In this document: positions 1-38,124 of the stretch, one piece after another
Layout of the letters: each line of letters opens with the position of its first letter
Position numbering within the stretch: position 1 is the stretch's first letter
NCBI RefSeq assembly: GCF_000027125.1
Contig: NC_017626.1
Reading direction: 5' to 3' (one strand)
Origin: Escherichia coli 042
GTDB taxonomy: Bacteria; Pseudomonadota; Gammaproteobacteria; Enterobacterales; Enterobacteriaceae
DNA: 64,000 nt
The notes under the pieces: generated by a model
Told to the model about the DNA's origin: nothing
Database searches by the model: none
What the model saw: the letters and a program-made list of their open reading frames with translations, nothing else
Translations under genes and position numbers: made by a program

Positions 1-520
1 GTACCCTGCGCCAACAGTAACTTTTGCACCAGAACCAGTGAAGATCACTCACCCGATTTCACTTCCCTGACGTCAGCCTGAACACGGCTGGCGTTTTCAT
101 TTATAAACAGAAAGGAAAAATGATGATGTCAGATACCACACTCTCCCGCCCGGAGGTGGTCAGCGGGCATACGGACGTTATCTATTCCACCTCAGTCTGC
201 CACATTCTGGCTGTACGAAAGAGTACACTGTTGCCAATCGACACAATTATCCGGCATCAAGTAAGCGATATCAGTTAACCGATATAGATGGGGAAGATGC
301 TTTTATCCGGATTGGTTCTATCGCGATGGTGCGAGTACCACTTGATGCAATGGCGCCTGTCGAGGAAGATGACGAGTAACAGAGCTCGGTATCTCAATCA
401 GGACCTGATTGTCCTGGTTCGATGCCGAAAACCAGTGATTTTTCGTGTTGGTATCTGTGTTGGTATAGGATGGTGTTGTTTATTATTAACAATTTTAAAT
501 CATGAGGTTAAATCGCATGT

Positions 521-541
521 TTGAGTCCGGCCTTCGCACCA
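521..541 (+). repeat. 21-bp sequence resembling the 3' end (T-arm/acceptor/CCA) of tRNA-Leu leuX; possible att-site direct repeat of a leuX-integrated island
   Basis: ttgagtccggccttcgcacca read directly; compared with recalled leuX 3' end CGAGTCCGGCCTTCGGCACCA (one G missing); no full tRNA upstream. Confidence 0.4.
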
Positions 542-929
542 CATCGTATGCAAATCGAGTCGCTCAAGGGCGGCTTTTTTTGTACCTGTGTTTTCACTAC
601 TTTGTTTGCATGTAACGCTGATAATCTAAGAACTTCGGAAGCCCCATTTCCATCAATGATGTTCATTCATCATCCTGAAAATTAAGTAGATATAAAACTT
701 CATTGCCTTGGTCTAATGGCACAGAAATAGATTGCATTTGGCGAGTGGCATTCTTAGTGCGTCGTTGTTTAGTCATGAAACGATGCGTAAAATTGCTGAT
801 TTTATGTGTCAAAGTCCCGCAACCGGAGATGGCCTTACTTCAATGATCAACCACTATTGACGTATCCTTTTAATATCTTGATTCAATTCAGCAGGTTATC
901 GTCCAAAGTACAGCGAAGAGAGAGAAAAG

Positions 930-3821
930 ATGATTGGTACAACACCTTATCATGCGAAATATTTTGCGCATGAACTTTCCATTCTTCATTCAAACAATGG
1001 GGTGGACCGTCTGTCTCAATCGCTGTTTGATGCAAGCGTAGATCTAAACCCTCATCAAATTGAGGCGGCTCTTTTTGCTATCGAAAATCCGCTAAGCAAA
1101 GGTGTTGTGCTTGCCGATGAAGTTGGTTTGGGTAAAACCATTGAAGCTGGACTAGTGCTTTGCCAGTTGTGGGCTGAAAGAAAACGTAAACTGTTGATCA
1201 TTTGTCCTGCTTCACTGCGTCGCCAATGGGCGAGCGAGTTACAGGAAAAGTTCAATCTACCTTCTCAGGTGTTGGACGCGAAAATGTATAGCCAGCTTCA
1301 AAAAGAAGGGATCCATAATCCCTTAAATAATAAATCGATCACTATCATGTCATACCACTATGCTGCTCGGTTAGAAGAGAAATTGGTGGCTGAAATGTGG
1401 GATCTGGTTGTTATCGACGAAGCCCATAAACTGCGTAATGCTCATCGAGAAAGCAACAAAATGGGGCAAGCGTTAAAGCGTGCGCTTGATGGGCGGAAGA
1501 AATTACTACTGACCGCAACGCCTTTACAGAACTCGTTGATGGAACTGTATGGCATGTCGACGCTTATAGATGAACATACCTTCGGCGAAGTTAAAGCGTT
1601 CAGAAAGCAATATATGCAGGCAGATAGCGATATTGCGGAGTTGAAGGGGCGATTGTCGCGTTTTATCAAACGAACTCTACGCAAGAATGTGCTGGAGTAT
1701 ATCAAGTATACAGAACGTAAAGCGATCACTATTCCTTTCTATCCGAGCGAACAGGAGCAGGATCTTTATGAACGCGTACAAAAATTGCTTGAACGTGAGG
1801 ATAGCTATGCCTTACCAAAACGACACCGGCATCTGACGGGGCTTATACTCAGAAAACTACTTTCCTCAAGTACGAAAGCCGTATTGAATAACTTGCAGAT
1901 CCTTAAGACTCGTTTAGAAAGGTTAAAGCTGGAAGGTATCGTTGAAGATGATATGGACATCATCCAACAGATCATAATGGATGATGATCTTGAAGATGAC
2001 ATCGTTGAAGATGCCGAATCAGTAGCGCCAGATACAGAGTGCAAATCTGTGGATTCAGATGCGCTTCAGGCAGAAATCAATGAGCTGGAATCACTCATTG
2101 TCAAAGCAGAACAGATTGGCACTGATACCAAATCAAAAGAGTTGCTTTCTGGCCTGGAGCAAGGTTTTGCACAGCTTGCCGAAATGGGGGCTGCAAAAAA
2201 AGTCATCATCTTCACGGAGTCGATGCGAACTCAACAGTACCTTGCACATTTTCTGGAAAACAATGGCTACCAGGGAAAAGTAGTAACCTTTAGTGGCACA
2301 AACAATACACCGCAGGCAAACAAGATCTACCAGCAATGGCGCGAGGAATATCAGGGATCTTCTCGTATTACCGGGTCGGCGCAAATTGATAAACGCTCGG
2401 CTTTGATCGACCACTTCAAAGATCATGCTGAAATCATGATAGCTACAGAAGCTGCAGCTGAAGGGGTGAACCTGCAATTTTGTTCGCTACTGATCAATTA
2501 CGATTTCCCCTGGAACCCACAACGCATTGAACAGCGTATTGGACGTTGTCACCGATACGGGCAAAAATTTGATGTGGTTGTTATTAACTTCCTCAATCAG
2601 CGAAACCAGGCCGATCAACGCGTTCTTGAACTCTTAACTGAAAAGTTCAGCCTGTTTGATGGCGTGTTTGGCGCATCGGATAGTGTGCTTGGCAGCATAG
2701 AAAATGGTGTGGATTTTGAAAAAAGGATCCAGTCAATTTATGAGTCATGCCGTACCCCCGAGGAGATAGAGCTGGCTTTTGAAAGGTTGCAGAAAGAGCT
2801 GGAAGATGAAATCAATCTCAAGATGCAGAAGACGCAAGAACAGTTGCTTGAGCATTTTGATGAAGATATTCACGATATCCTTAAAATAAGGCTTGATGAA
2901 GCTCGGGAGCGCCTGGATAAAGTCGGTCGTTGGTTTTGGGCCGTGACCTGTCAGCAGCTCAAACAATATGCTGATTTTGATCATGAGCATCATCGTTTCA
3001 CTTTACGTGAATCAGTCAATGAACTGCCTGTCGGGCAGTACCAGCTGTTGCGCAAAGATGGCAGGCAAAATAGTGCGTTACAAATGCAGGATCACCACAG
3101 TTTTGCATATCGGATCAATCATCCGCTGGGTGAGTACGTCATTGAGGGAGCCAAAGCCCAGGAGACGAAAACAGCTGAAGTCATCTTCGATTACAGTAAC
3201 CACACAACGAAAGTTTCGGTGGCTGAGCAGCTGAAAGGGCAATCAGGATGGTTAACACTAAATTTGCTTACTGTTGATGCGTTTAACAGGCAGCAATTTT
3301 TAGTCTTTACCGCGAAAACTGACAACGGACGTGTGGTAGATGGTGAAGCTTGTAAACGTCTGTTCAACTTGTCTGCAATAACCAACGAAAAGCTGGATAA
3401 TTCGGCAAGTTTAGATGCATTACCTGATGACTTGATCTTACTCAAGAACAGGCAAATTGACGCCAGGCTTGCAGAAGTTTTGGAGCAGAACTATGTCCTT
3501 TTTGAAGCGGAAAGAGATAAGCTGGAAAAATGGGCTGAAGACATGATCTTTGCGGCGGAAGAAGCATTACGCGATACCAAAATGCAAATCAAGTCGTTGA
3601 AGCGAGAAGCCAGGCTGGCGCAATCGATCGAAGAACAAAAGCAAAACCAGGAAAAGCTTAAGCTACTGGAACGGCAGCAGAAGCGTCAACGTATGGAAAT
3701 TTTTGACATTGAAGATGAGATCGCCGACAAGAGGGATGAACTCATCAGTGCCCTTGAAGAGCGGATGAAGCAAAAGACGGATATCACCGAGCTGTTTACC
3801 ATCCGCTGGAAAGTTATTTAA
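930..3821 (+). CDS. SNF2-family (SF2) helicase/ATPase with C-terminal charged coiled-coil-like region; gene 1 of candidate defence operon
   Basis: 963-aa ORF from ATG 930; motifs in translation: LADEVGLGKT (motif I), VVIDEAHKLRN (DEAH), LLLTATPLQN (motif III), QRIGRCHRYGQK (motif VI); C-terminal E/K/Q-rich region. Confidence 0.85.
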   Translation: MIGTTPYHAKYFAHELSILHSNNGVDRLSQSLFDASVDLNPHQIEAALFAIENPLSKGVVLADEVGLGKTIEAGLVLCQLWAERKRKLLIICPASLRRQWASELQEKFNLPSQVLDAKMYSQLQKEGIHNPLNNKSITIMSYHYAARLEEKLVAEMWDLVVIDEAHKLRNAHRESNKMGQALKRALDGRKKLLLTATPLQNSLMELYGMSTLIDEHTFGEVKAFRKQYMQADSDIAELKGRLSRFIKRTLRKNVLEYIKYTERKAITIPFYPSEQEQDLYERVQKLLEREDSYALPKRHRHLTGLILRKLLSSSTKAVLNNLQILKTRLERLKLEGIVEDDMDIIQQIIMDDDLEDDIVEDAESVAPDTECKSVDSDALQAEINELESLIVKAEQIGTDTKSKELLSGLEQGFAQLAEMGAAKKVIIFTESMRTQQYLAHFLENNGYQGKVVTFSGTNNTPQANKIYQQWREEYQGSSRITGSAQIDKRSALIDHFKDHAEIMIATEAAAEGVNLQFCSLLINYDFPWNPQRIEQRIGRCHRYGQKFDVVVINFLNQRNQADQRVLELLTEKFSLFDGVFGASDSVLGSIENGVDFEKRIQSIYESCRTPEEIELAFERLQKELEDEINLKMQKTQEQLLEHFDEDIHDILKIRLDEARERLDKVGRWFWAVTCQQLKQYADFDHEHHRFTLRESVNELPVGQYQLLRKDGRQNSALQMQDHHSFAYRINHPLGEYVIEGAKAQETKTAEVIFDYSNHTTKVSVAEQLKGQSGWLTLNLLTVDAFNRQQFLVFTAKTDNGRVVDGEACKRLFNLSAITNEKLDNSASLDALPDDLILLKNRQIDARLAEVLEQNYVLFEAERDKLEKWAEDMIFAAEEALRDTKMQIKSLKREARLAQSIEEQKQNQEKLKLLERQQKRQRMEIFDIEDEIADKRDELISALEERMKQKTDITELFTIRWKVI

Positions 3822-3841
3822 TTGATTTGAAAGAGAAAATA

Positions 3842-6800
3842 ATGAGTAAGTACAACGAATTAGTTAAGAAGTTAAAAGAAATTTTTCAGATTGATCGACC
3901 AGAACTGGATTTCGGTATTTATCGTATTTTAAATGCACGTGCTGATGAAATTAACGACTATCTGGATAATAAGCTGAAGGCCAAAATCCAGTCTGCGCTG
4001 GCGGATGCAGGAAATGCCAATAAATCAGAATTAGAACATCAGTTGCAACTGACAATAAAAGCGGCAACTGATGCGGGTGTAGACCCTGCTGATAGCCCAA
4101 AAGTACAGGAGCTTAAAAAGCAACTGGCGGCTATGGCATCCGGAGCAAATGAGCATGAAAATGCAGTATTTTCCCATCTGCTCACTTTCTTTTCGCGTTA
4201 TTATGACAACGGCGATTTTATCAGCAAACGCCGTTATAAAGGTAATACCTACGCCATCCCCTATTCTGGCGAAGAAGTGATGTTGCACTGGGCAAATAAG
4301 GACCAGTACTACATTAAAAGCGGTGAAAACTTCGCTAATTATTCGTTCAAATTAGAAGACGGTCGTAAAGTTAGCTTTAAATTGCTCGCAGCGGACACAG
4401 CAAAAGATAACCGTAAAGATAATGAATTAGATCGCTGCTTTGTACTTATTGAGCCGCATGTTCGTACCAAAATTGATGAAGAAGGCGATGAGTACGAACA
4501 AGAATATAAGCCAGTAGAAGTGGTGAAAACTTCATCTGTGGTTGACGGTAAACTCGTTGAAACAGAAGAGTTAGTTATTCATTTCGAATATAAGGCAATG
4601 AAAAAGGGCACTAAGCAGGATGCTTTAGTGCAGTCCGCTATTTCAAAAATTCTGGCTGATAAAACAGTACAACAGCATTGGGTTGATCTTGCTAAACGTG
4701 CGCCAACCGAAAAAAATCCGTCACGTACAGAGTTGGAGCGTCATTTAACAACATATACCCAACGTAATACGGCTGACTACTTTATTCATAAAGATCTCGG
4801 TGGCTTTTTAACGAACGAACTGGATTTTTATATTAAAAATGAAGTAATGAATCTCGATAATGTGCAAAATGCAGAAGTGTTTGCTAATATTGAGAAACAA
4901 CTGCGCATGATTCAATGTTTGCGTGCTGTTGCGCTGGAACTCATCACTTTTTTGGCACAGATTGAGAATTTCCAAAAGAAACTTTGGACTAAGAAAAAGT
5001 TTGTTGTAGAGACAAACTATATATTTACCGTAGATAAGTTACCAGAGGAATTATATTCAATTGTCATTAAGAATGATGCCCAATGGGAACAATGGAAGCA
5101 ATTAGGTTTCCTCAGCGATTTTTCGGGAGATAGAGAGAAAACTCTGAAAGAAAAACAAGGGTTAATTGTTGATACTTCATTATTTGATTCCAAGTTCAAA
5201 GAGAAATTTATCAACAATATCGCTGATGTTGACACAAATGTTTCCGCTTATTTATATAGTGGAGATAATTATCAAGTGTTAAATCTTATTAAAATAAAAT
5301 ATAATAATAAAGTTGATGGTATATATATAGATCCACCTTATAATACCAATGCGTCTGAGATTTTATACAAAAACGGTTATAAGGATAGCTCATGGTGTTC
5401 TTTAATGAGTTCTCGTTTAGAGATAAGTAAATCCTTATTAAAAGAAAATGCAGCTACTTGTACAACTATTGATGAGTATGAAGTTGCTAATTTGGAATTA
5501 TTGCTAAAAGAAACGTTTACAGGATATCAAATCAGACCTGTTGTTATTGAATATAACCATCGAGGACGAGTTAAAAGTAATTTCGCTATTACCCATGAAT
5601 ATGCTTTATGGACCTTACCAGAAAATAAAGATGTAATATCGAGACAAGTTGAAATATCAGAAGAAATTAGGCGTAACTTGCGTAGAACTGGTTCAGGTTC
5701 TACTCGTGCCGAATCTGAAAGTCAATTTTATGGCATCGAAGTTGACAATAATACCCTCGAGATTGTCAATGTAACCGAAGCTTTACCAAGTTTAGATTCA
5801 GCAATTCCTACGCATCTAAATAAAGATACAACAATGGTATGGCCAGTAGATGACCAAGGGGTTGAGCGGCGCTGGTACTATGGGCGAGATCGTGTTATTC
5901 GCGAAGCTAAAGAAGGTACTGTTTGGGCGAAAAGAATAAAAGGTGAGATACAAATACATTACAGACAAGCAGGAAAACCTAAAATGCGTAAATCTGTATG
6001 GATTGGTCCAAAGCTTGACGCAAGTACCTATGGTTCGGAACTATTAAATAGTTTGTTTAACGTGACTCAGATTAATTTTTCTTTTCCAAAAAGTATTTAT
6101 GCGGTTAAGGAATGTTTAGAGTCGCTTAGTAATTCGAAGTATGCTCATTTCTTAGACTATTTTGCTGGCTCTGGTACTACAGGGCATGCAGTGGTAGATA
6201 TGAATAGGGATGATAATGGTTTTCGAAAATTTAGCTTGGTCGAACAAGGTGAATATTTTTATTCTGTTACCTTGCCTAGAGTAAAAAAAGCTATTTTTAC
6301 AACTGATTGGAAGTATGGAAAAGCACTAAGCTGTAATCCAGTTGAGCAGACATTAATAAAATATATTAAAATTGAGAGTTTTGAGGATACTCTTAACAAT
6401 ATAGCACTGAAACGTACTGAAACAACAAAGGATCTTTTCGACGATCTTAAAGAAATTCGAGAGGATTATGTTCTTAACTATATGCTTGAAACAGAAAGCA
6501 AAGGCTCACTACTCAATACTGATAATTTCAAAAAACCATTTAACTACGAAATGGATGTTACAACGGATTCCGCAGGTGCTACTGAGCGTAAGAACATCGA
6601 TTTAGTTGAAACTTTCAACTATCTCATTGGCTTACATGTGAAATCCATCGAATCCAATATCGAACGTGGCTATGTGCGTGTTGAAGGAACGCTACCAACT
6701 GGCGAGCGTACCCTTATTCTGTGGCGCGATTGCGACAAGATCGGCTATGAAGAATTGAATAAATATGCCAACAGATTCGATTTATATGCAAAAGAAAATA

Positions 6801-6946
6801 CGTTCGACGTTATCTATATCAATGGCGATCATAACTTACCTACCGCCTTTACCGTTGATGAAGAAGACGGCGAGATTGTTCGTAGCCTGAAAATCCGCCA
6901 GATCGAACCTGAATTCTTGAACCTGATGTTTGCGGAGGAGGTTTAA
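3842..6946 (+). CDS. large beta-class N6-adenine/N4-cytosine-type DNA methyltransferase (Type III Mod-like core with N- and C-terminal extensions); gene 2
   Basis: ORF track opens at TTG 3827; first ATG 3842 with AAGAG upstream, 20 bp after gene 1 stop; motif IV DPPY (about 5330-5341) precedes motif I FAGSGTT (about 6161-6181) with about 285 aa between (TRD position). Confidence 0.8.
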   Translation: MSKYNELVKKLKEIFQIDRPELDFGIYRILNARADEINDYLDNKLKAKIQSALADAGNANKSELEHQLQLTIKAATDAGVDPADSPKVQELKKQLAAMASGANEHENAVFSHLLTFFSRYYDNGDFISKRRYKGNTYAIPYSGEEVMLHWANKDQYYIKSGENFANYSFKLEDGRKVSFKLLAADTAKDNRKDNELDRCFVLIEPHVRTKIDEEGDEYEQEYKPVEVVKTSSVVDGKLVETEELVIHFEYKAMKKGTKQDALVQSAISKILADKTVQQHWVDLAKRAPTEKNPSRTELERHLTTYTQRNTADYFIHKDLGGFLTNELDFYIKNEVMNLDNVQNAEVFANIEKQLRMIQCLRAVALELITFLAQIENFQKKLWTKKKFVVETNYIFTVDKLPEELYSIVIKNDAQWEQWKQLGFLSDFSGDREKTLKEKQGLIVDTSLFDSKFKEKFINNIADVDTNVSAYLYSGDNYQVLNLIKIKYNNKVDGIYIDPPYNTNASEILYKNGYKDSSWCSLMSSRLEISKSLLKENAATCTTIDEYEVANLELLLKETFTGYQIRPVVIEYNHRGRVKSNFAITHEYALWTLPENKDVISRQVEISEEIRRNLRRTGSGSTRAESESQFYGIEVDNNTLEIVNVTEALPSLDSAIPTHLNKDTTMVWPVDDQGVERRWYYGRDRVIREAKEGTVWAKRIKGEIQIHYRQAGKPKMRKSVWIGPKLDASTYGSELLNSLFNVTQINFSFPKSIYAVKECLESLSNSKYAHFLDYFAGSGTTGHAVVDMNRDDNGFRKFSLVEQGEYFYSVTLPRVKKAIFTTDWKYGKALSCNPVEQTLIKYIKIESFEDTLNNIALKRTETTKDLFDDLKEIREDYVLNYMLETESKGSLLNTDNFKKPFNYEMDVTTDSAGATERKNIDLVETFNYLIGLHVKSIESNIERGYVRVEGTLPTGERTLILWRDCDKIGYEELNKYANRFDLYAKENTFDVIYINGDHNLPTAFTVDEEDGEIVRSLKIRQIEPEFLNLMFAEEV

Positions 6947-6948
6947 GA

Positions 6949-9900
6949 ATGGCTAAAAAACCGACCACCGGTAAAGCAGTTAAAAAAGAGACTAACAGCA
7001 AGCTGAGCTTTCATAAGCAGTTGGTTTTAAACCGCTTTATGTTCCATTTTTTTAAAGATGGCACATTGCAAGGTTTGAAGAATCGGTTAGGCGAGGATCG
7101 CTTTGAAGGCATCCATGAAGATGGCCAAAGCTTATTCTTCCATGAGCTGAGTAACTATTTATTCGAGGTCGATCTTATCGATCTCGATGAACTGCGTCGT
7201 TACGATCTCAATATCGTGCAGCACTGGCAGCAGATAACCGAGCACCGTAATCGTAAAGAAGACACAGTGCTGAACATGAAATATTTTCAGTACTTGTCGC
7301 TTCTGTTTACCGAGATCTACCTGGACTGGTACTTCAACCGTAAACAGCAATTACTCGATGGGCTAAATAACGAGCTGGCAGCATACAATGCTGAAAATGA
7401 TAAAACAGCAAAAGACCGGGCTAATCAGTTCAAATCATACGTTCTGGATGATTTGAATAAACTGGCATACTGGAACGCTACTGGTTCTGGTAAGACACTG
7501 CTATTACATGTCAATATTTTGCAATATTTACATTATTTCCAGAACGGTAATAGCCATCATTACCCGGATAAAATCATCCTGCTTACGCCGGATGAACGCC
7601 TATCGAAGCAACATTTAGATGAACTGGAAAACTCAGGATTTACCCAATACCAGTTATTCGATAAGAGTAAATCCGCGCCATTTAAAGGCACGATTGAAGT
7701 TATTGATATCAATAAACTTGCCGATGAAATGGGTGACAAAACTGTTGCCGTTGAGGCATTTGAAGGCAACAATCTGGTCTTGATTGATGAAGGGCATAAA
7801 GGCACAGGAAGTGCTGCTGGTGCCTGGATGCGCCGTCGTGACAAATTAACGCGTGACGGATTTGCGTTTGAATATTCAGCAACTTTTGGCCAGGCAGTGG
7901 CCGGTGGCAATAATGTTGAGGCAGTTGAAACAGAAATTCAGAAGAAAAAAGCAAAGCTGCTTTTTGAAACAACTGCCTTAGGTAAACTGAGCGAAGAACA
8001 GTTAGCGCAAATAGCATTAACCAGCGAAGAACAACGTGATGCGCGTATTCAGGCGACACGAGAAGTCTATGGGAAATCGATTCTGTTCGATTACTCCTAT
8101 AAATTCTTCTATGAGGATGGTTATGGTAAAGAATCACTGATTCTTAACCTTAATCCTGAAGAGGATAAAAAAGATGAGCGTCGGTATGAGTATTTTACCG
8201 CGTGTTTGCTCAGCTTTTATCAGCAACAATATTTATTCAATAAGAATAAAGAAAAATTAAATGAATTTAATATCGAAAAACCGCTATGGGTTTTTGTCGG
8301 TAACACCGTAAGTGGTGAAGATTCAGACATTCACGCAGTACTGCGTTTTTTAGCATGGTTTTTAAATCATGAATCGCAGGCAAAATCGTGGATTAAAGAT
8401 CTCATTGAAAATAAAGCGCGAATTCTTGATACCAAAGAGCGTAACATTTTTGAAAATCGCTTTACCGCACTAATGAACGGCCCGGAAGATATCTACGCAG
8501 ATATTCTTTCTCGTTTGTTTAACACCACTCACTCAGGTCAGAGACTGCGAGTTCTGAATTTAATAGGCAGTAAAGGTGAACTGGCATTACAGGTTGGTGA
8601 GGCCGAACCGTTTGGTCTTATCAATATTGGTGATGCACCGTCTCTTTACAAAATGTGTGAAGAGGATACGACATTTGATTATCAGAGAGATGATTTTGCG
8701 AAGTCACTCTTTCATACGTTAAATGACAAAGACTCGCAACTACATATTTTGATCGGCTCGCGAAAATTTACTGAAGGCTGGAGCAGTTGGCGCGTCTCAA
8801 CGATGGGATTGCTCAATATGGGCCGTGGAGAAGGTTCACAGATCATTCAGTTATTTGGTCGTGGCGTTCGCCTTAAAGGTCGCAATTATTCTTTGAAACG
8901 CAGTACACCCGGTGAGCGTCCGAAAGGGTTGCATCTGGAAAAATTAGAGACACTGAATGTATTCGGTGTACGTGCCGATTACATGGCAACCTTTAAACAA
9001 TACCTGGAAGATGAAGGGATTACGCCAAGTGACGAGATCCTTGAGCTGAATTTTGAAACTCGGCCAAATATGCCAGCAACCAGGCTTAAAACACTTAAGC
9101 TTAAAGATGGTTATAAAGATAATCAAAGACTCGGCTTTAAACGTGTCTATTTTCCCGAATTGTATGAAGTTCCTGCTGATTTTCAGGGGAAAATTAAGCA
9201 GCCGCATATTAAGCTGGACCTATACCCGAAACTTGAGTCGATTGATACCAGCAGAAAAGGGGACAATACTCCGGTTAACGTGCGTAATGAAGCGAAGTTA
9301 GATTATAAAATCATTAGTGCGTTTGATTTTGATCGGCTTTATCTCGCCATTCAGAATTATAAACTACAACGCGGCTGGTCAAATTTACGTGTGGATAAAC
9401 AACGTTTGATCGACTTTTGTACCGGTAAGACAAAGATCGGAAATAGTTGGTATACCCTTTTGATTCCAGCTTCAGAGCTTGAGATTAAGCAATATGCAGA
9501 TATTGCTAAGCAGGAAGATATTATGCTTCGTCTGCTGACTGATTATACTGATCGCTTTTACAACACATTGAAAAATGCTTATGAAGGTCAGTTTTATGAA
9601 GTCACGCAGGTGAAAGAAGATGATCCTGGTATGATCAAAATGTACCATTTCGAGATCGAAGAAACTGATGATGGGTTGGCATATGCCAGTCGGCTGGAAC
9701 AATTACAACAATTGGTCATCGACGGCGAAATCGGTAAAGCAAAATCCTGGAGTGCATCCGGGATGGTTGCTATTACCTTTGATAAACATCTCTATTATCC
9801 ACTTCTTTCGATTGAAAAAAATGCCAACATACCGCTAAAAATGCGACCGGCAGCACTGGGTGCATCAAGTGAGATTACTTTTGTCCATGATCTTCAGTCT

Positions 9901-34116: not shown

Positions 34117-35349
34117 TCACCGCTCCTCCGCCAGCTCGGCAGCCTGATGTTGGCGCACGCGATTAAGCAATCCGGCCAGGGTGAAAACGACGATAACGCC
34201 TGCCACAACGGCTAACAGATGAAACGGCAAGCGACCGCTGTTAAACCACAGCCAGCGGCCGATTTCGACCGAGACAGACATCACCATCAGGATCACCATA
34301 TTCAGCGATGCGGAGACGGTCCCTTTCGGTAAGTTATTGGAAAACAGCGTAAAGCGGAATAAGGTCGGGAAAATCAAACCAATCCCGAAAGCATACAGAC
34401 TGGTGCCCAGCACCGACCACAGCCAGACGTGCGGTGACAGCAGATTGCCGATAATCAACAGCGCGAGGCCAACCAGTTGAAGGGGTACGGCACGCCAGAT
34501 AAAGCGCGGTTCGGTCGGATCTTTAACGAAACGCGCCACGATGGCATTCGCGACAATCACCGCGCCGAACACCGGAACCTGTGTCCAGGCGAACTGCGAA
34601 GTTGTTAAGCCGCCCGCGTCGATCAGGATCACCGGCGAGACAGCCACCCAACTCATCATGGGGATATAGCTTAAAGAGATGGTTGCTGCGCCAAAGAGGA
34701 ACAGCCGATTGCAAAAGACATTACGAAAATCGCGCAAGACGCTTTTGGCGCTAAATGGAACCGCGCCGCGCTTCACCGTCTCTGGCATCGCCAGCAGTAA
34801 GCCAACAAATGAGATAAAACCCATAACCGCAATGATGGCAAAAAGGACTTTCCAGTGCACAAAGTGCATCAGAGCTGCGCCGGAAAGCGGGCCAATAATC
34901 GGCGCAATCAGTACGATGGAGGTGATAATCGCCATCAACTTGATCCCTTTTGTCTGTCCGAACGCCTCCTGCACCGTGACATAACCAACGGTGGCAATAA
35001 AACAGATACTGGTGCCCTGAATTGCACGCGCGATAAGAAACTGTGTCATAGACGTTGTGAACATTGTCGCAGCGCAGGCAAGGGTAAATATTAGCGCCCC
35101 GGTAATCAGCACCGGCCTGCGGCCAACCCTGTCGGAAAGCGGCCCCAGCAGCCACTGCAATGCCATGCCTCCAGCGAGATAGAGACTGACGGCAGCCGGG
35201 GCCAGACTGACATCGGCATTAAAATCACGGACCACATTAATGATCCCTGGCTGGATCAGGTCCGTCGACAGATACGCAGCAAAGTCATACAAAATCAACG
35301 CCATCGGGAAAAACAGCGTGGCGGCATGGCGGGCAAAAAAACGTGGCAT
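34117..35349 (-). CDS. mdtM: multidrug efflux MFS transporter
   Basis: 410 aa from [26 protein letters not shown]... Confidence 0.92.
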
Positions 35350-35662
35350 AACAAACAACTCCTTGTCCGGAGAACCCAATGGGGAAAACGAAATTCAATA
35401 CCGTCGGTAATGACGAAAGGCAGGCGAGAAGGACAAATGTACTGAATTTCATGTAATCAACCACACTGCCTGCGAATACACAGACAGAGAAATACCTTCT
35501 GACTCCAGGTCAGAATGTATAACGATTACAAATAGTCATCAGCACATTACACCTCTTTAATTGATGGCTTGCATAGAAAATATACACCTTAAGTGTAATT
35601 AAAATTTGGTAATGCTGCCAACTTACTGATTTAGTGTATGATGGTGATTTTAAGGTGCTTGC

Positions 35663-35938
35663 GTGGCTTCCATTTCCATCAGATGTCCTTCCTGCTCCGC
35701 TACTGAAGGCGTGGTGCGTAACGGCAAAAGCACTGCCGGACATCAGCGCTATCTCTGCTCTCATTGCCGTAAAACATGGCAACTGCAGTTCACTTACACC
35801 GCCTCTCAGCCCGGTACGCACCAGAAAATCATTGATATGGCCATGAATGGCGTCGGATGTCGCGCCAGTGCACGCATTATGGGCGTTGGCCTCAACACGG
35901 TTTTACGTCACTTAAAAAACTCAGGCCGCAGTCGGTAA
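35663..35938 (+). CDS. insA: IS1 InsA
   Basis: 91 aa, near-identical to copy 1 InsA. Confidence 0.9.
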
Positions 35939-36359
35939 CCTCGCGCATACAACCGGGCAGTGATGTGATTATCTGCGCTGAAATGGACGAACATTGGGGC
36001 TACGTCGGTGCTAAATCACGTCAGCGCTGGCTGTTTTACGCGTATGACAGGATACGGAGGACGGTTGTGGCCACGTCTTCGGTGAACGCACTCTGGCCAC
36101 ACTGGAGCGTCTTCTGAGCCTGCTGTCGGCCTTTGAGGTCGTGGTATAGATGACGGATGGCTGGCCGCTGTATGAATCACGCCTGAAGGGAAAGCTGCAC
36201 GTTATCAGCAAGCGTTACACTCAGCGCATTGAGCGACATAATCTGAATCTGAGACAACATCTGGCAAGGCTGGGACGGAAGTCACTGTCGTTCTCAAAAT
36301 CGGTGGAGCTGCATGACAAGGTCATCGGGCATTATCTGAACATAAAACACTATCAGTAA
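35857..36359 (+). pseudogene. insB: IS1 insB, frameshifted
   Basis: frame splits into 35857-36117 and 36150-36359; alignment with copy 1 shows a 1-bp deletion near ...acggttgtggccacgtcttcggtg and an in-frame TAG. Confidence 0.7.
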
Positions 36360-36530
36360 GTTGGAGTCATTACCCGACAGCGAGGTGTTTAGTGTGCCAT
36401 GTCAGGCGAGAAATTCTATTGGATGAATCAAGTCCAACTTACTCATTGTCAATTTCATGGTTGATTATTCGAAACGTGATGCTATTTCCAACATCAACGC
36501 TATAATTGCAGAATAATTGTAGATACATTT

Positions 36531-36845
36531 TTGTATATACAATTAGGGATGGCAATTATGCCAATGGAGTTTGAATGGGATGAAAACAAGGCCAAAAGTA
36601 ATCGGGTGAAACATGGCATCCGCTTTGAAGATGCGGTGTTATTGTTTGATGATCCACAACATTTGTCACAGCAAGAACGCATAGAAAACGGTGAGTATCG
36701 CTGGCAGACAATCGGCCTGGTTTACGGCATCGTGGTTATTCTGGTTGCGCATACCATCCGTTTCGAAAGCGGAAATGAAATTATTCGAATCATCAGTGCA
36801 CGAAAAGCAGATCGTAAAGAGAGGAATCGCTATGAGCATGGTTAA
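36531..36845 (+). CDS. BrnT-like toxin (DUF497 family)
   Basis: ...MEFEWDENKAKSNRVKHGIRFEDAVLLFDDP...IRIISARKA...; start ambiguous (ATG 36531/36549/36558). Confidence 0.65.
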   Translation: MYIQLGMAIMPMEFEWDENKAKSNRVKHGIRFEDAVLLFDDPQHLSQQERIENGEYRWQTIGLVYGIVVILVAHTIRFESGNEIIRIISARKADRKERNRYEHG

Positions 36846-37134
36846 ACATAAACGAGGGACCTCCTCTACACTCGATGTGCAGCATGAGGCCGAACTGAAG
36901 GCGCTGACGAATAAATCCGACGAAGATATTGATTACAGTGATATCCCACCTTCCAGCGATGAGCAATGGTCTAACGCCGAACGCGGTAAGTTTTATCGGC
37001 CATTGAAAACTCAGGCTTCGGTGCGTATTGATGCTGATGTGATGGAATGGTTGAAGCGACCAGGTAAAGGCTATCAAACTCGCCTGAACGCAATTTTACG
37101 TGAAGCGATGCTGCGCGATCAGAACAAAAAATAA
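36832..37134 (+). CDS. BrnA-like antitoxin (ribbon-helix-helix C-terminus)
   Basis: ATG overlaps toxin stop; ...SVRIDADVMEWLKRPGKGYQTRLNAILREAM... Confidence 0.6.
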   Translation: MSMVKHKRGTSSTLDVQHEAELKALTNKSDEDIDYSDIPPSSDEQWSNAERGKFYRPLKTQASVRIDADVMEWLKRPGKGYQTRLNAILREAMLRDQNKK

Positions 37135-37167
37135 TTCAGGCCGCCACATGGCGGCCATCATCCAAAA

Positions 37168-38124
37168 TTACTTCCTCAACCCCGCAAACGCTGCCCGAAT
37201 CTCTTCCTCCGGCAACTGAATCCCGATAAACACCATTGTGCTATGTGGTTTTTCATCGCCCCACGGGCGATCCCAGTCGGCGCTGTAGAGGCGCTGGACG
37301 CCCTGGAACAGCAGGCGGTTAGGTTCGCCGTCAATCCACAGCATCCCTTTGTAACGCAGCAGTTTATCTGCCGATTCCAGAAGCAGGTTTTCCATCACCC
37401 GGGAAACTTCGCTGATATCTACCGGGTAATCCAGTTCCACCACAATCGACGAAATATCGTTTTGTTTATCCGCGATAAAGTGGAAACGCGGTTTGGTGCT
37501 GACGACGTTCTCTTCCAGCATAAAACCGTTGGTGTTGAACAGCAGGCCCAGGTCGATGTCGCCGTGGGTGACGGTGTAGACCGGTGCACGGGCGTTGATG
37601 CGCGCCAGGCGTTCACGCAGTTTTTCTGCTTCGCCTGCGACGTCGGTTTTGGTCAGCAGAATACGGTCGGCGTAGCCAACCTGGGACTGGGCGATGGTGA
37701 ACTGGTTCATCTGCTCGTCGGCATGTACCGCATCCACCAGCGCAATCACACCGTCCAGCAGGTAACGCTGGCATAAAATCTCATGGGAGAAAAAGGTCTG
37801 AATAATCGGGCCGGGATCGGCCATGCCGGTGCATTCAATGACCAGACGGTCAAACTGAATATTGCCCTTGTCGAGATTATCCAGCAGGTCGAGTAGTGCG
37901 TCTTCCAGCTCGTTGGAGCGCGAACAGCAGATGCAGCCGTTGGTCAGCGTTTTGATCTGCGTGGCGCGGTCGCCAATTAGTTGATCATCAACGGAGACTT
38001 CGCCGAATTCGTTTTCAATCACGGCAATCTTGTAGCCGTGTTGTTCGTTAAGAATATGGCGCAGCAGGGTGGTTTTTCCCGCGCCTAAAAAACCGGTGAG
38101 TAGGGTAACTGCAATCGGGTTCAT
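37168..38124 (-). CDS. yjiA: CobW/P47K-family GTPase YjiA
   Basis: MNPIAVTLLTGFLGAGKTTLLRHIL...; 318 aa. Confidence 0.92.
   Translation of the reverse strand: MNPIAVTLLTGFLGAGKTTLLRHILNEQHGYKIAVIENEFGEVSVDDQLIGDRATQIKTLTNGCICCSRSNELEDALLDLLDNLDKGNIQFDRLVIECTGMADPGPIIQTFFSHEILCQRYLLDGVIALVDAVHADEQMNQFTIAQSQVGYADRILLTKTDVAGEAEKLRERLARINARAPVYTVTHGDIDLGLLFNTNGFMLEENVVSTKPRFHFIADKQNDISSIVVELDYPVDISEVSRVMENLLLESADKLLRYKGMLWIDGEPNRLLFQGVQRLYSADWDRPWGDEKPHSTMVFIGIQLPEEEIRAAFAGLRK

Follow-up and report, generated by a model that had tools for sequence, protein, structure and literature searches.

The second of the two IS1 elements in the stretch of Escherichia coli 042 DNA analysed here (64,000 nucleotides of NC_017626.1; hereafter the window) is very probably a long-established insertion of the IS1F isoform lineage that is fixed in the chromosome, lies where the variable 'immigration control' region meets mdtM, and has a decayed transposase gene. 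This element, termed copy 2, is a degraded member of a known and still active isoform lineage. As an IS1F-type pseudo-element it is already known and ordinary, and public annotation records it: in genomes identical over the region, including FORC_031, PGAP labels it 'IS1 family transposase; frameshifted; internal stop'. The features of copy 2, of its neighbours and of the intact comparator, copy 1, are listed in Table 1.

Table 1. Coordinates of the two IS1 copies, the parts of copy 2 and its flanking genes in the window
Feature	Position	Strand	Description	Basis
Copy 1	15717-16483	-	IS1A-type, 767 bp, insA and insB intact; comparator	Alignment, ORFs, PGAP 'IS1-like element IS1A family transposase, programmed frameshift'
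mdtM	34117-35349	-	Left neighbour of copy 2; K-12 collinearity up to IS1 left end
Copy 2	35608-36374	+	IS1F-type IS1 element, 767 bp (768 bp minus deleted G), non-autonomous	Terminal repeats, alignments, PGAP pseudogene
IRL of copy 2	35608-35630	+	Left terminal inverted repeat, GGTAATGCTGCCAACTTACTGAT, identical to K-12 IS1F
insA of copy 2	35663-35938	+	Intact, GTG start, 91 codons; Zn-ribbon and HTH DNA-binding protein, IS1 repressor	ORF, translation, Pfam Zn_ribbon_InsA and HTH_Tnp_IS1
insB 5' fragment of copy 2	35857-36117	+	86 aa; native frame to 36071, then 14 codons out of frame, TGA 36115-36117
A6C motif of copy 2	35914-35920	+	AAAAAAC, programmed -1 frameshift site, intact	Read directly
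1-bp deletion	between 36071 and 36072	+	G lost (GCGCAC>GCCAC), after InsAB' residue 137	Alignments
Amber codon	36147-36149	+	TAG for TGG (W163 of InsAB', directly before WMTDGW motif), shared with K-12 IS1F	Alignments
insB 3' fragment of copy 2	36150-36359	+	69 codons (69 aa), starting at ATG after amber
IRR of copy 2	36352-36374	-	Right terminal inverted repeat, GGTAATGACTCCAACTTACTGAT on minus strand, identical to K-12 IS1F
brnT/brnA	36558-37134	+	Toxin-antitoxin pair, right neighbour of copy 2; K-12 collinearity resumes at 37168 (yjiA)

Copy 2 has the organization of the IS1 family. It is ~768 bp long and is bounded by imperfect ~23-bp terminal inverted repeats starting with GGTRATG; in shuffled sequences, the number of IS1 terminal-repeat matches expected by chance was 0. 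Its insA overlaps an insB' frame that continues in the -1 register via A6C, and the repaired InsAB' fusion contains the InsA Zn-ribbon, the InsA HTH and DDE_Tnp_IS1, with Pfam matches to PF03811 (1.5e-19), PF12759 (1.8e-27) and PF03400 (1.9e-73, profile positions 1-131 of 131).

In IS1, synthesis of the transposase InsAB' depends on a -1 ribosomal slip at A6C, through which insA is fused to the insB frame. This fusion frame is broken twice in copy 2, by the deletion after codon 137 and by the amber at W163. The two are independent lesions, with the amber situated 26 codons past the deletion in the original insB frame. The preliminary description had held that insB of copy 2 is split by a frameshift and that the shifted frame terminates at a TAG. 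The split is borne out by the ORFs at 35857-36117 and 36150-36359, but the shifted frame ends at the TGA. The TAG is a separate TGG to TAG change in the original frame, and two lesions had therefore been merged into one. The same description correctly noted a 1-bp deletion and multiple substitutions relative to copy 1. A pairwise alignment of the two copies (91% identity) contains 68 substitutions and two single-base indels, the second of which lies near the left end, where copy 2 has one base more (GGTGATTTT versus GGTG-TTTT).

Unlike an autonomous IS1, copy 2 lacks an uninterrupted InsAB' frame through the DDE domain. Its native InsAB' product comprises 137 native residues before the shift and, according to Pfam, retains the InsA Zn-ribbon and HTH together with DDE_Tnp_IS1 positions 1-37 of 131. 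The only products that copy 2 could yield would be intact InsA and a 151-residue stub, which would keep the DNA-binding N-terminus and lose ~70% of the catalytic DDE domain. From the extent of the Pfam domain and the motif pattern, the second Asp (WMTDGW) and the Glu (RIERHN) of the D-D-E triad would be situated downstream of both lesions. We infer that the stub would be catalytically dead and that InsA is still expressed from copy 2. Because most of the catalytic domain would be missing from the stub, the element is predicted to be unable to move itself; since its terminal repeats are intact, it would remain a substrate for transposase supplied by other IS1 copies in the same genome. The earlier view that copy 2 is probably defective unless complemented in trans agrees with the domain truncation, the PGAP pseudogene call, the mobilization in trans of K-12 IS1F and a duplicate found in strain 720632 (both described below).

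We assessed the distribution of the insertion and of its alleles among 5,426 complete E. coli genomes. The mdtM-IS1-brnT/brnA arrangement, with both junctions, is present in 1,005 genomes and the IS1-brnT right junction in 1,111, so that the locus occurs in about 20% of complete genomes. The exact 75-nt allele with the G deleted was recovered in 359 complete E. coli records and the undeleted allele, as an exact match to a 76-nt isoform-specific probe, in 3,905; at the amber site, the exact 76-nt TAG allele is found in 2,303 records and the TGG allele in 2,907. At the mdtM-brnT locus itself, at least 33 genomes match a lesion-free query at 100% over the flank and the right part of the element, which is the part that holds both lesion sites. 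The copies at this locus in HS30-1, one of the 33, and in RIVM_C037166 (99.8% match) are annotated as whole transposases. The amber alone is carried by ESY002, MLI108K2 and JKHS006, and the amber together with the deletion by the window, BUCT2930, CFSAN061761, FORC_031 and 720632. ETEC-like strains, FORC_031 among them, have a near-identical sequence over the window. In the fetched copies, the deletion allele co-occurs with the linked private substitutions 35785G and 35994T. The occurrence of intact, amber-only and amber-plus-deletion alleles at one locus fits a stepwise decay of an old insertion.

The missing G reflects a genuine, heritable polymorphism by which a sublineage can be recognized, and is not a read error. 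Single-base indels are the commonest errors in long reads, and some other strains have undeleted alleles at this locus, either of which might suggest that the deletion arose in sequencing or assembly and that copy 2 is really an amber-only or intact IS1F. We give this explanation practically no credence, since the change occurs outside any homopolymer, the exact allele recurs in 359 independent complete-genome records and the deletion travels with its linked private substitutions; moreover, with the base restored, the amber would still truncate the transposase. The homopolymer error against which the preliminary description had cautioned is refuted by the sequence context of the site and by the 359 records. 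It is likewise very improbable that copy 2 represents a functional variant with an unusual frame structure, using either a second recoding event with amber read-through or a split transposase. IS1 already employs programmed frameshifting, the amber allele is common (2,303 records) and amber-bearing IS1F-type copies occupy at least two loci. However, no slippery motif is present at the deletion site, and both +1 recoding and read-through would be needed, while K-12 IS1F, which has the amber only, is already immobile natively (PMC12428005). Because intact alleles with the standard single slip exist at the same locus and elsewhere, the lesions are derived.

A different question is whether the decayed element is kept as a source of trans-acting repressor (InsA, perhaps the stub) for the roughly 40 IS1 copies in the genome, which would make it a domesticated regulator and not neutral debris. 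InsA is a known IS1 repressor that binds the terminal repeats (PMC12428005, PMC12903888), and the 10 same-locus copies compared all retain an undamaged insA, start codon and IRL region, with insB' gathering the lesions. The variable sites, at 3 in the 276 bp of insA versus 9 in the 421 bp of insB', are nevertheless too few to indicate selection. Because InsA is also made by all intact IS1 copies in the genome, copy 2 would add only a small dose, and the persistence of the locus in about 20% of complete genomes is equally expected of a neutral relic that is unable to excise. We therefore regard retention as a repressor source as improbable, and favor the reading of copy 2 as an old IS1F-type insertion with a decayed transposase gene.

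The W163 TGG to TAG change is found in IS1F-type copies at two loci, mdtM-brnT in the window and fec-yjhU in K-12. Descent of the amber from one dead element ancestral to both the K-12 and the mdtM copies was considered and is not supported: a single base, the amber, separates K-12 IS1F from an intact IS1F, lesion-free alleles exist at the mdtM locus and the fec-locus copy of FORC_031 has TGG. This FORC_031 copy, the second IS1F in that genome, occupies the site of K-12 IS1F (fec-yjhU, ~29 kb beyond the window start; retrieved segment 45598-46400). In it a 2-bp deletion directly follows that codon; it has a further 6-bp deletion and a right flank unlike that of K-12. Since 94 single-step nonsense changes, including 23 transitions, are possible in InsAB', recurrent mutation to amber at W163 is unlikely but not absurd. 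Among about ten sampled copies from the mdtM-brnT locus, sites 35994 (G/T) and 36148 (G/A), which are 154 bp apart, occur in all four haplotype combinations. The shared amber could have arisen by recurrent mutation, allelic recombination or gene conversion. More specifically, gene conversion between dispersed dead IS1F copies, or repeated inactivation at a single codon, perhaps under selection, with an InsA-only repressor copy as the result, is in our estimate unlikely; if true, it would mean, together with the event in strain 720632, that dead IS1F copies are still active in genome dynamics as trans-mobilized elements and as regulators.

With respect to its genomic setting, the window lacks the immigration control region of K-12 (~19.1 kb, rpnD to mrr, with yjiR-V, mcrBC, symER and hsdRMS), and only copy 2 and brnT/brnA lie between mdtM and yjiA (35608-37167). 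No 8-9-bp direct target-site duplication was found at copy 2 (flanks ...TAAAATTT / IS / CGACAGCGA...), because its left junction is variable. Across strains the locus has three different left junctions versus one constant right junction, which suggests that the left side of the element was probably rearranged later. In the window, the insertion event of copy 2 itself is therefore documented only indirectly.

Two further parts of the window deserve mention. According to the FORC_031 annotation, a cluster encoding an SNF2-related protein, a DNA methyltransferase and a DEAD/DEAH helicase occupies about 930-10330. Remnants of HNH and of phosphorothioate-dependent restriction genes lie next to it, as does a truncated nanS, and the stretch has the appearance of a defence island. 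At the other end, a 101-bp tandem array (63582-64000; 4.1 copies, 96% matches) lies downstream of yjjV and runs past the window end. This array is REP/BIME-like and ordinary-looking; the idea that it consists of tRNA genes was rejected, as no tRNA genes were found in it.

Copy 1 differs from copy 2 in isoform and in distribution. Its insB had been described as a single 167-codon frame, and that ORF was found at 15732-16235 on the minus strand. At its own junction copy 1 is present in 306 genomes among the 5,426, versus 1,005-1,111 for copy 2, and the two copies belong to different isoforms. The earlier suggestion of independent acquisition is upheld, and the conclusion that copy 1 and copy 2 were acquired separately at different times is well supported. 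At 15717-16654 of the window, copy 1 lies directly between the nanC side and a remnant of the FimH C-terminus, 55 aa long (16487-16654), beside gntP. In K-12, fimB-fimH lie between nanC and gntP, and by that gene order the type 1 fimbrial operon would be absent at copy 1. No target-site duplication was found in the flanks of copy 1, which we attribute to the fim deletion. Copy 1 is 767 and not 768 bp long, with GGTGTTTTGAGG between IRL and the insA start (16440-16445, just inside the IRL of this minus-strand element); at that position the aligned IS1F/IS1X2-type copies have one base more, and other IS1A copies measure 768 bp over the same query range.

Evidence that the dead allele can move comes from strain 720632 (NZ_CP025842.1), for which we compared segment 1873-2840 of one retrieved stretch and 1-7600 of another. 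This strain carries two amber-plus-deletion copies in inverted orientation that bracket an inverted yjiJ'-mdtM segment and are 100% identical to each other over 767 bp. Each has one original junction and one new junction in yjiJ, and the same 9 bp, GTGGATTGC, are found at both new junctions. The new junction occurs in only 1 of the 5,426 genomes. The structure could have resulted from replicative intramolecular transposition or from insertion followed by homologous recombination; the latter route still requires transposition of the dead allele. By either route, an element that is incapable of encoding transposase made an IS1-type 9-bp target duplication, which shows that the transposase of another copy served it and that it was mobilized in trans.

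Copy 2 should be annotated as an IS1F-type pseudo-element with two lesions, and is neither a sequencing error nor a new isoform. Beyond annotation, its decay is of little consequence, apart from providing a stable sublineage marker (the deletion allele in 359 records). The element is still a possible substrate for a helper transposase and for homologous recombination, which is relevant to how the DNA near mdtM and the immigration control region is rearranged. The decay of IS copies and the continued movement of dead ones are illustrated by the allele series and by the duplication in 720632, but both principles were established before.

Comparison with known IS1 elements places copy 2 next to IS1F of E. 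coli K-12 MG1655 (NC_000913.3 4518472-4519239; insA7 b4294, insB7 b4576), which belongs to the same isoform lineage. By the ISfinder convention, isoforms share roughly >95% DNA identity. Over 768 aligned columns, 7 substitutions and 1 indel separate copy 2 from K-12 IS1F (~99% identity), and the two elements share the same IRL and IRR sequences. The identity of copy 2 to copy 1 is 91%, and its description as a divergent isoform thus holds. Of the seven substituted sites, five (35763, 35785, 35817, 36283 and 36309) have in copy 2 the base of the IS1A-type copy 1, unlike in K-12 IS1F, and the base common to copies 1 and 2 is probably the older state. K-12 insB7 is annotated as a pseudogene and carries the same W163 amber. 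Both elements are non-autonomous, but K-12 IS1F is located at fecI-yjhU instead of mdtM-brnT and is without the 1-bp deletion. We also considered whether copy 2 is a recombinant mosaic of the two copies, which lie 19 kb apart in inverted orientation; this was rejected, as differences from copy 1 occur along the whole element, which is IS1F-type throughout.

Intact relatives of the same IS1 isoform clade have a complete InsAB' frame (PGAP 'programmed frameshift') and are found in many copies per genome. Between copy 2 and an intact IS1F near malM in strain 203740 there are 8 substitutions and the deletion, and this IS1F is distinguished from K-12 IS1F at the amber base only; an IS1X2-type copy near pdeF in strain L73 differs from copy 2 by 27 substitutions and the deletion. 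Both are flanked by a 9-bp target duplication, whereas copy 2 lacks both the complete frame and the duplication. The notion that the whole isoform lineage is dead was rejected, given the undeleted alleles (3,905 records), the TGG alleles (2,907 records) and these intact, duplication-flanked copies. The canonical IS1A/IS1R type, represented by copy 1, shares its architecture with copy 2 (~768 bp, IRL/IRR, insA, A6C slip and insB'); it differs in its ~9% nucleotide divergence (the 68 substitutions) and, in the case of copy 1, in being intact. The IS1A/IS1R type is mobile in K-12 (PMC12428005).

K-12 IS1F is essentially immobile natively (PMC12428005), and when a consensus InsAB' was overexpressed in trans, it gave 44% of the IS1 insertions (PMC12903888). 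Copy 2 can also be likened to mini-IS1 constructs and MITE-like elements, which have intact ends, no transposase of their own and a need for a helper copy; mobilization in trans has been demonstrated for IS1F and for mini-IS1 (PMC12903888). Copy 2 differs in being a full-length element inactivated by point lesions, and not a derivative with its interior deleted.
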